From IMG/VR virus record IMGVR_UViG_2563366971_000005: a stretch of 41,744 nt of DNA, one strand, 5' to 3'. Below, in pieces: positions 37,152-38,467 of the stretch. Each line of letters begins with the position of its first letter. The first letter of the stretch is position 1. The stretch comes from a virus. Its lineage: Duplodnaviria; Heunggongvirae; Uroviricota; Caudoviricetes. The notes under the pieces were generated by a model that saw only the letters and a program-made list of their open reading frames with translations, was not told the origin of the DNA and searched no databases. The position numbers were made by a program, and so were the translations under genes.

Positions 37152-37901
37152 ATGAATACTGTAACCATCAACAACAAACAGTTTCCGGTAATCGAATATC
37201 GCAGTCAGCGTGTTGTGACATTTGCAATAATTGATGACGTCCACCAGCGCCCGGAAGGTACCGCCCGTGCTGCGTTTAACCGCAACCGTTCTCACTTTAT
37301 CGAAGGGGTGGATTTTCTTGAAATGACTGCGGACGTAATACGTACGGAGTCACTTTCTGATGCCTTTGCCGCGCGAACTGCCAAAGGGATCATTCTTTTC
37401 GAGTCTGGTTACCTGATGTTGACGAAGCCTTTTAACGATGCTCTTGCATGGCAGGTTCAGCGCGAACTGGTTAACAGTTATTTCCGAACTCACGCGCCGC
37501 TGACGGAAATGGAGATGATCGCTGCAATGGCCGCCGATGCCGTTCGCCAGCAGAAGCGCCTGAGTCATGTTGAAGAGAAGATCGAAACGGTCACCAAAGC
37601 TGTGGAGAACATCAAACGCGGCACAATGCGCACCGGATATGTCGGTTACCGCCAGGTGGTAGCCAAAAGCGGAATGAGTGACGCCAAGTGTCGGAATCTG
37701 GTCAACGCCTACCACATCCCTACCGACACGCACGAATTTATGACTCCGGACGGTCTGTTGTCTCGCAGGGCTGTCGTCGAGCTTGAGACATTTATGGTGG
37801 TGTTCCACCAAATGATGTCAGAGGCTGAACCACGCGGCACACGCTGGTATCACCCGAAGATGGGGCTTTTCCAGGTAATCGGATGGGAGGATAAAGCATG
37901 A
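37152..37901 (+). CDS. ORF6N-domain protein (antirepressor-like)
   Basis: Start at MNTVTINNK (ATG 37152) after GGAG; EYRSQRVVT…AAFNRNRSHFIEGVDF…NSYFR resembles ORF6N domain. Confidence 0.55.
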   Translation: MNTVTINNKQFPVIEYRSQRVVTFAIIDDVHQRPEGTARAAFNRNRSHFIEGVDFLEMTADVIRTESLSDAFAARTAKGIILFESGYLMLTKPFNDALAWQVQRELVNSYFRTHAPLTEMEMIAAMAADAVRQQKRLSHVEEKIETVTKAVENIKRGTMRTGYVGYRQVVAKSGMSDAKCRNLVNAYHIPTDTHEFMTPDGLLSRRAVVELETFMVVFHQMMSEAEPRGTRWYHPKMGLFQVIGWEDKA

Positions 37902-38467
37902 TCATCCAGTCAAAACTTATTCGCGCCGCTCTGGTGTGCGCTGCTAAAAACGACGTTCGTTATTACCTGAACGGTCTTCACATCACGCCAAAACATATTG
38001 AGGCAACCAATGGTTTCGTAGCACTGCGCATGACTCACGGCATCCGGACGAAGAAAAACATCATTGTCCAGTTCGAAGGTGGCGTCCCGGCCAAAGCCGA
38101 AACGACAGAGCTGATTTTTAGTAAAGAGCCGATCGCTGTTCATCGCGACCAGTTTCAGCGCCGACTGTCCATTACCGGCATTAAACTGGTGGACGGTTGT
38201 TTTCCGGATTTGGAACGCATCATTCCGAAAAAATTTGACCTCTGTACACACCCGGTGATCCAGGCGGGTTACCTGAGTTATCCAGAGAAGATGTTTGGTC
38301 GTGAGCGTAAATTTATTCCCGTCCAGTTACGTCCCTCCGGTGACGGGCAAGCGGTCAGAATTCAGTTTGATTCCATCATCAACTCAATGTATGGCAATCC
38401 TGAATTTGTTGTGATGCCTTGTCGTGATCATGGCGATTTCAACGTGGCTCAGGAGCATCCGGAATGA
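37898..38467 (+). CDS. Truncated DnaN-like protein (beta sliding clamp homologue, about half length)
   Basis: 189-aa ORF; AKNDVRYYLNGLHI, ATNGFVALR, IKLVDGCFPDLERIIPKKFD and EFVVMPCR align with E. coli DnaN domain II and C-terminus. Confidence 0.6.
   Translation: MIIQSKLIRAALVCAAKNDVRYYLNGLHITPKHIEATNGFVALRMTHGIRTKKNIIVQFEGGVPAKAETTELIFSKEPIAVHRDQFQRRLSITGIKLVDGCFPDLERIIPKKFDLCTHPVIQAGYLSYPEKMFGRERKFIPVQLRPSGDGQAVRIQFDSIINSMYGNPEFVVMPCRDHGDFNVAQEHPE

Follow-up and report, generated by a model that had tools for sequence, protein, structure and literature searches.

A phage-encoded half-size homologue of the DnaN sliding clamp with a predicted partner-binding pocket and without the ring-closing segments

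The bacterial sliding clamp DnaN (Escherichia coli beta, PDB 1MMI/2POL; TIGR00663; Pfam DNA_pol3_beta_2 and DNA_pol3_beta_3) forms a closed channel lined by twelve alpha-helices and operates with a clamp loader. Here we describe a protein of half this size, hereafter mini-beta, encoded in a 41,744-nucleotide stretch of caudoviral DNA (IMG/VR record IMGVR_UViG_2563366971_000005; the whole stretch, a lambdoid prophage of E. coli, is called the window below). Mini-beta is predicted to adopt the homologous processivity fold, and the clamp-binding motif (CBM) pocket appears to be common to the two proteins. Compared with DnaN, mini-beta has no domain I, no first half of domain III, no dimer interface and no alpha-2 helix in domain II.

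A shortened beta has been described in E. coli itself: work from the Livneh laboratory in 1996 reportedly identified beta*, an ultraviolet-inducible 26-kDa internal product of dnaN that comprises domains II and III and is said to form a trimeric clamp. Beta* resembles mini-beta in being an N-terminally shortened beta without domain I; it is said to keep the whole of domain III as a PCNA-like two-domain protomer, whereas mini-beta is without half of domain III and one helix. The herpesvirus factors UL42, UL44 and BMRF1 use the processivity fold with neither ring nor loader, and carry a basic DNA surface and a groove for the C-terminal peptide of the polymerase; any analogy with mini-beta would be a functional one. 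Each of these factors is built of two full domains and has its own dedicated viral polymerase, and none shows a specific sequence relation to mini-beta. Phage manipulation of the beta-clamp interaction hub is also exemplified by Gp168 of Staphylococcus phage Twort (PDB 7EVP). Gp168 is a ligand or blocker of the host clamp rather than a clamp homologue, and mini-beta would reverse this relation by copying the receptor site itself; 7EVP appears among the structural matches of mini-beta through its beta chain only.

Mini-beta shares family, length class and predicted fold with the short phage polIII-beta-like proteins of PHROG 3007, and is ~23-34% identical to members from lytic phages. 'Shorter polIII-beta homologues' in phages were already noted in 2011 (PMC3201878), the record of phage Bcep781 names gp15 'DNA Pol III b subunit fragment', and BFVD holds many phage models of 163-250 amino acids with the same fold (template modelling score 0.7-0.82) under the name 'DNA polymerase III beta subunit'. 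The lytic-phage members lie in replication modules or alone among structural genes, whereas the window copy belongs to a lambdoid enterobacterial clade, lies near int and carries Phe40. Literature searches turned up no functional study of the family, only the 2011 survey and annotation notes; serine-integrase directionality factors, taken up as a literature lead, proved irrelevant. Mini-beta is a further member of a known, repeatedly annotated and functionally uncharacterised family, to which the present analysis adds the exact architecture, the pocket-selective conservation, the loss of both interface halves, a shift towards basic charge and the recognition of a RusA mis-annotation.

The open reading frame (ORF) of mini-beta occupies positions 37898..38467 on the plus strand, with the stop codon counted in, and encodes 189 amino acids beginning MIIQSKLIRAAL, as established from the ORF listing and the sequence. 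A preliminary description of this DNA, made from the letters alone, had placed the gene at the same position and aligned its product by eye with DnaN. The three DnaN-like motifs on which it relied are all present, namely AKNDVRYYLNGLHI (residues 16-29), IKLVDGCFPDLERIIPKKFD (residues 95-114) and EFVVMPCR (residues 169-176), and their counterparts in E. coli DnaN are residues 150-160, 234-253 and 358-365, respectively. Searches with the single sequence gave a signal that was modest but consistent. Pairwise BLASTP against E. coli DnaN, to which mini-beta is ~26-28% identical, yielded E=6e-8; phmmer against the PDB yielded E=0.002-0.003, the best 24 of 32 matches being beta clamps; TIGR00663 was matched at E=2e-4 (20.5 bits against a cut-off of 137.65) and Pfam DNA_pol3_beta_2 at E=0.005 (17.6 bits, under the gathering score of 27). 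The Pfam models of the N- and C-terminal DnaN domains gave no match to mini-beta. Homology to DnaN is settled by the family profile, built on an alignment of 117 diverse sequences drawn from the clusters of a profile search. In hmmsearch against the PDB this profile reached E. coli beta at E=2e-19, with 41 of 41 matches being beta clamps, and hhalign of the family profile against E. coli DnaN returned 99% probability at E=9e-18. The proposed kinship with DnaN is thus strongly borne out at the profile level, and the predicted fold, described below, is that of a sliding clamp and not an unrelated one.

In the hhalign alignment, residues 6-114 (37913..38239, plus strand) are homologous to domain II of DnaN (E. 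coli beta 137-253), and residues 118-177 (38249..38428, plus strand), on the evidence of both hhalign and HMMER, to the C-terminal half of domain III (DnaN ~313-366). Two stretches of DnaN are left without a counterpart in the hhalign alignment, namely domain I (1-136) and the first half of domain III (254-312). The by-eye view that the protein comprises domain II and the extreme C-terminus without domain I therefore holds, and the accompanying claim that most of domain III is missing can be made more exact: the stretch 313-366 is kept and 254-312 is lost. Met1 follows DnaN Met135 by one residue in the frame of the alignment, which puts the start of mini-beta at the boundary between domains I and II. 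In HMMER, the second aligned domain likewise placed profile positions 122-182 on DnaN 313-366. The first HMMER domain instead ran the C-terminal half of the protein onto the first half of domain III, an alternative that arises because the clamp halves are internal repeats; it was rejected in favour of 313-366 on the NxxY and VVMPxR motifs and the hhalign result.

AlphaFold 2 (AF2) runs on alignments of 15 and 117 sequences predicted the same secondary structure, with predicted local distance difference test (pLDDT) values of 85 and 96. The model obtained with 117 sequences is a compact monomer (pLDDT 96.1, predicted template modelling score 0.90), and all of the fold matches of the mini-beta model were sliding clamps. 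Residues 60-68 form a loop in both runs and replace the second helix (alpha-2) of domain II; Pro64 within this loop is conserved in 97% of the family. The model has two channel-type helices (residues 5-14 and 123-133), compared with the three expected for 1.5 domains. Short helices at residues 159-165 and 183-186 have no equivalent in the beta alignment. TIGR00663 describes DnaN as a protein of three domains and ~366 amino acids, and mini-beta, at 189 amino acids, falls outside that description.

The interface of the beta dimer is made by I78, F106 and R103 of domain I and by I272, L273, E298 and E304 of the first half of domain III (PMC11139829), and every one of these residues falls in a segment that has no counterpart in mini-beta. 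Both halves of the interface being absent, mini-beta would be expected neither to close a ring head to tail nor to pair with host beta in the normal way. This bears directly on the earlier suggestion that the truncated clamp heterodimerises with or poisons the host clamp, which in its canonical form finds no support, the interface segments being absent. A poison subunit that joins one protomer of host beta and keeps the ring from closing would be in keeping with the homology to beta, and the sheet edges exposed at both ends of the protein could conceivably pair with another clamp-fold protein; with the canonical interface residues gone, we regard such a role as very unlikely. The host beta dimer is, besides, very stable, so that free protomers are scarce.

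Ring formation by another route also had to be weighed. Mini-beta might build a true ring clamp by homo-oligomerisation, for example from four copies of 1.5 domains, giving six domains in a beta*-like manner. The clamp fold is present, many phage annotations read 'DNA polymerase III beta subunit', and the three beta-alpha-beta-beta-beta-type repeats that we count per protein would give 4 x 3 = 12 ring repeats. Nevertheless, a ring of this kind appears improbable, given that the known interface halves are both missing, that a channel-lining helix is replaced by a loop, and that the AF2 model is a confidently predicted, compact monomer carrying additional short helices. On geometric grounds, four three-repeat units would need a non-equivalent pairing of half-domains. 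A clamp loader was not seen in the neighbourhoods examined, no window-wide loader search having been made, and the basic isoelectric point (pI) of mini-beta is typical of non-ring factors.

The CBM pocket has fared differently from the interface. Among the 18 residues listed for the pocket, which span subsites I and II (PMC11139829), 11 are identical in mini-beta: R152, L155, T172, G174, P242, R246, Y323, V360, M362, P363 and R365 in DnaN numbering. Across the 117 members, the mean fraction of residues identical to E. coli beta was 0.67 at pocket positions, compared with 0.25 for the 71 aligned positions outside the pocket (Mann-Whitney p=1.4e-5), and all eight of the alignment columns conserved to at least 90% (R21, Y23, L24, G26, G39, P103, M173 and P174) lie in pocket segments.

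The first pocket segment, RYYLNG (37958..37975, plus strand; residues 21-26), corresponds to DnaN R152-G157, with R21 found in 117 of 117 members, L24 in 111 of 117, and Y23 and G26 each in 90% or more. ATNGF (38003..38017, plus strand; residues 36-40) corresponds to DnaN A171-H175 and carries T37 (90%) and G39 (99%). Codon 40 (38015-38017) specifies phenylalanine here, compared with histidine in 88% of the family and in DnaN (His175). His175 of DnaN bridges both subsites of the pocket, and close relatives of mini-beta in other Enterobacteriaceae mostly have histidine. FPDLERI (38201..38221, plus strand; residues 102-108) matches DnaN F241-V247, including P242, R246 and V247; P103 is conserved in 98% of members, lysine or arginine at position 107 in 89%, and valine, isoleucine or leucine at position 108 in 85%. 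QAGY (38261..38272, plus strand; residues 122-125) matches DnaN N320-Y323 of subsite II, its first position being asparagine in 68% of the family (glutamine here) and its tyrosine being kept in 89%. On the C-terminal strand, VVMPCR (38408..38425, plus strand; residues 171-176) matches DnaN V360-R365, with M173 in 97%, P174 in 93% and R176 in 81%. Judged from alignment and model together, mini-beta is a clamp-fold fragment with the predicted partner pocket kept and the ring-closing elements lost.

The protein also differs from DnaN in charge. Mini-beta has a pI of 9.08 and a net charge of +5, and the median pI of the family is 8.6; DnaN as a whole has a pI of 5.25, and its segments equivalent to mini-beta one of 5.8. 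Three basic residues, R9, K66 and K131, are conserved specifically in the family and are carried by the two helices that remain and by the loop that replaces alpha-2. High pI in loader-less clamp homologues has been tied to direct DNA binding (Kazlauskas and Venclovas, PMC3201878).

A pocket that is kept while the interface is lost suggests that mini-beta binds the partners of the clamp and not the clamp itself. Our preferred reading, held tentatively and with the shared core claim included in that judgement, is that mini-beta is a stand-alone, non-ring CBM receptor that acts as a tether. The pocket would bind the QLxLF-type motif of the host Pol III alpha, epsilon or delta subunit, of Pol I, II or IV, of Hda or MutL, or of a phage protein. 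The positive surface would anchor mini-beta to DNA or to the phage replisome with no need of a clamp loader, as in herpesvirus UL42, and the tethered pocket would thereby redirect host replication proteins to phage DNA or forks. We infer the CBM binding, the monomeric state, the DNA contact and the identity of the clients from sequence and model. The tether is suggested by the basic shift, the new conserved basic residues and the occurrence of family members in replication modules. The preliminary description had also named an accessory replication factor as an option, and this part of it is plausible, family members often lying beside phage helicase or primase genes. On a wider view, which we advance with still more reserve, the mini-beta class might be a widespread set of phage effectors modelled on the receptor site of the host clamp alone, through which phages plug into or rewire its interaction network, for instance by capturing Pol III or Pol I for phage-helicase forks or by titrating delta, Hda or MutL; this would be an undescribed form of replisome hijacking.

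The same retention of the pocket with loss of the ring elements would also suit a decoy, in which a soluble, pocket-bearing monomer titrates clamp clients (delta, Pol III, Hda, MutS/MutL, translesion polymerases) away from host beta, slowing host replication or disabling repair and regulatory pathways in the course of lytic growth. The affinity of delta for a monomeric beta variant is reported to exceed that for the dimer ~50-fold (PMC11139829), and a monomeric pocket could therefore compete strongly. The gene lies in the accessory early-left operon, a usual site of host-takeover genes, a conserved phage partner was not found in the neighbourhoods compared, and for the acidic members of the family DNA binding would be unneeded. 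A decoy would, however, starve the phage's own host-dependent replication, a polymerase having been identified neither in Salmonella phage seszw nor in the scanned part of the window. It leaves the basic pI and the new conserved basic residues unexplained, the contact loop for delta (first half of domain III) is absent, and a stoichiometric sponge requires high expression. We consider the decoy possible but rather doubtful.

Several observations weigh against the tethered CBM receptor that we prefer. Within the pocket, three positions diverge throughout the family: in DnaN numbering, R176 is replaced by valine or isoleucine, L177 partly by alanine, and V344 is variable. The window copy departs from beta at two further positions, F40 (His175 in DnaN) and Q122 (Asn320). 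Conservation of the pocket could in part reflect fold constraint, the pocket being generally the most conserved part of DnaN. Of the 117 family members, 24 are acidic (pI<6.5), so the predicted DNA binding cannot hold for the family as a whole. In the window the gene sits among the accessory early-left genes close to int, outside the replication module, and no conserved partner gene across the family was found in the neighbourhoods compared. Bcep781 carries a family gene together with its own PolA, and the notion that the family occurs only in phages without a polymerase was rejected on this ground. A strict CBM-like pattern had two matches in the proteins of the window, about the number expected by chance (QLDMHF in 12880-13293 and QLLLRF in 34882-35241). 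Finally, the retention of the gene in seszw, which is set out next, may come about only because the deletions never aimed at it.

Seszw is a virulent phage with helicases and a primase, and its annotation includes no DNA polymerase. The importance of mini-beta to it was judged from deposited mutant genomes. More than 40 genome-reduced CRISPR mutants of seszw are listed (e.g. MZ375325.1 and MZ375332.1; L004 4989-5525), with genomes down to 37.7 kb, and all keep mini-beta; most of them are without a short stretch adjoining it. The authors of the mutants avoided targeting presumed essential genes. Mini-beta may be essential or quasi-essential in seszw, or may simply never have been targeted; the retention, which we count with the lack of an annotated polymerase on the side of the tethered receptor, is suggestive at most.

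The gene is under strong purifying selection, with a ratio of nonsynonymous to synonymous substitution rates (dN/dS) of 0.06-0.09 against homologues of 67-84% identity. Selection of this strength speaks against a decaying, functionless fragment of a captured dnaN, as might be imagined from a protein shorter than DnaN. Salmonella phage Fels-1 (NC_010391.1, 2529-2849) does carry residues 80-187 only, at 72% identity and split over two hypothetical coding sequences, and its copy looks like a shortened or decayed gene. The family otherwise has a constant length, 170-210 amino acids in nearly all of the best 150 of 567 clusters, and the AF2 model of mini-beta is confident and compact. A strong Shine-Dalgarno sequence, GGAGG (37886..37890, plus strand), read directly from the DNA, lies 7 nucleotides 5' of the ATG, and translation appears to be coupled to that of the neighbouring genes (below). 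The ~26-28% identity to E. coli DnaN indicates an old, independently evolving lineage. Decay is effectively refuted by these findings, and we assign it hardly any probability.

The 567 clusters, formed at 50% identity, were recovered at E<=1e-10 in a profile search of 1.84 billion representative proteins, and no domain fusions occurred among the 120 best family matches. The gene was found in 60 of 5,426 complete E. coli genomes, with at least 95% identity in 58 of those, and identical E. coli prophages carry it under the PGAP name 'beta clamp domain-containing protein' (WP_001553032.1). Mini-beta was confirmed at 154 IMG/VR loci, and 215 phage records carry distant members (~23-34% identity), with hosts that include Salmonella, Escherichia, Klebsiella, Vibrio, Burkholderia, Proteus and Acinetobacter. 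It is rare on plasmids (12 of 72,556 records).

Mini-beta matches PHROG 3007 at E=3.7e-65, with residues 1-179 aligned to profile positions 3-188 of 190. This PHROG bears the label 'RusA-like Holliday junction resolvase', which has spread to many RefSeq phage records (L003 4989-5525, L086 4001-4585, L005 4998-5579 and L088 3947-4525). The label is all that speaks for a resolvase. A Pfam scan at E<=10 returned DNA_pol3_beta_2 alone and no RusA family, the profile and fold matches are all to sliding clamps, and Bcep781 encodes a separate, true RusA, gp22. A resolvase identity is refuted by fold and profile and has next to no likelihood; judged on the same profile and model evidence, the 'RusA-like' label is a propagated mis-annotation of a beta-clamp fragment.

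In the window, the minus strand carries the tail, head and lysis genes, Q, the primase and a superfamily 2 (SF2) helicase, and the plus strand carries a LexA-family repressor and an early-left operon that ends with xis-int. From mini-beta it is 2 kb downstream to xis-int. Among 80 related prophage loci of IMG/VR, the gene precedes int by 1.2-2.6 kb in every case in which int was detected, and its upstream neighbour varies (ORF6N, SPFH or neither). The replication module (28308-31793, minus strand) comprises an SF2 DEAD/DEAH helicase of 552 amino acids (30135-31793), a primase of 322 amino acids (29165-30133) and then a 285-amino-acid protein of phrog_6204, function unknown; it is not of the lambda O/P type. 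Eight right-arm window proteins were scanned and consisted of the helicase, the primase and non-replication proteins, with no DNA polymerase among them; the whole window was not scanned. The protein that contains QLLLRF is a 119-amino-acid early-left product of phrog_1737, function unknown (34882-35241, plus strand), in which the hexapeptide occupies residues 51-56 and fits the QLxLxF consensus. It co-occurs with mini-beta at many loci, and its homologues keep LLxxF, with the glutamine often replaced by lysine or glycine.

Directly 5' of mini-beta is a gene for an ORF6N-domain, anti-repressor-like protein (37152-37901, plus strand), whose TGA (37899-37901) is overlapped by the mini-beta ATG. 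On the other side, the mini-beta stop overlaps, as ATGA, the start of a 77-amino-acid ORF of phrog_1001, function unknown (38464..38697, plus strand). The overlaps of start and stop with both neighbours place mini-beta in a translationally coupled operon. The 77-amino-acid ORF lies at an offset of +560 to +566 in ~65 of the 80 close prophage loci; it gave no Pfam or PADLOC match and was not found beside distant members of the mini-beta family. As its synteny is confined to the close prophage clade, it was rejected as a conserved partner and not counted as part of the system; it is possibly a clade-specific partner, or a case of mere synteny. Further 5' lie a gene for an SPFH/Band-7 lipoprotein of phrog_200 (36281-37108, plus strand), upstream of the ORF6N gene, and a ParE-family toxin-like gene (~35428-35646), the annotation of which was transferred from locus L001. 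The SPFH, ORF6N and ParE-like genes are typical accessory cargo of the early-left region, and PADLOC gave no defence-system match for mini-beta and five neighbours. A DUF551 gene (39276-39653, plus strand) is an intact ORF of 125 amino acids with a full match at E=1e-20; in an identical prophage (L001 8400-8756) PGAP lists it as a pseudogene without its N-terminus.

The surroundings of the distant members are varied. One member, in C130_2, adjoins a primase and a helicase, others adjoin DnaB-type helicase modules, and some accompany ParB-like, methylase and endonuclease VII genes. In Bcep781 and Proteus RS10pmA the family member is a lone gene in opposite orientation within structural modules, and in an E217-like contig it is co-oriented among tail genes. 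No CBM was found at the termini of the Bcep781 PolA. The primase-helicase gp52 of the same phage (L089 36857-39478) has QLALL at residue 23, near its N-terminus as in Hda, a single case that may be due to chance.

Every bacterial polymerase, together with the clamp loader, Hda and mismatch repair, is coordinated through the pocket of the beta clamp as a hub, and this pocket is also an antibiotic target. A large phage family appears to keep this pocket alone on a small, probably monomeric scaffold, and spans lambdoid prophages of E. coli, Salmonella and Klebsiella as well as lytic phages explored for therapy and engineering. The widely propagated 'RusA-like resolvase' mis-annotation would be corrected. 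Should mini-beta be merely an auxiliary factor of small effect, the finding would be an ordinary one; its importance would rise with demonstrated CBM binding and a hijack or decoy role. If the proposal is true, mini-beta would be a natural minimal CBM receptor, compact enough to serve as a tool or probe of how the clamp and its clients interact, and would help to explain how host replication proteins are recruited, or competed for, by phages that encode their own helicase and primase and lack a polymerase.

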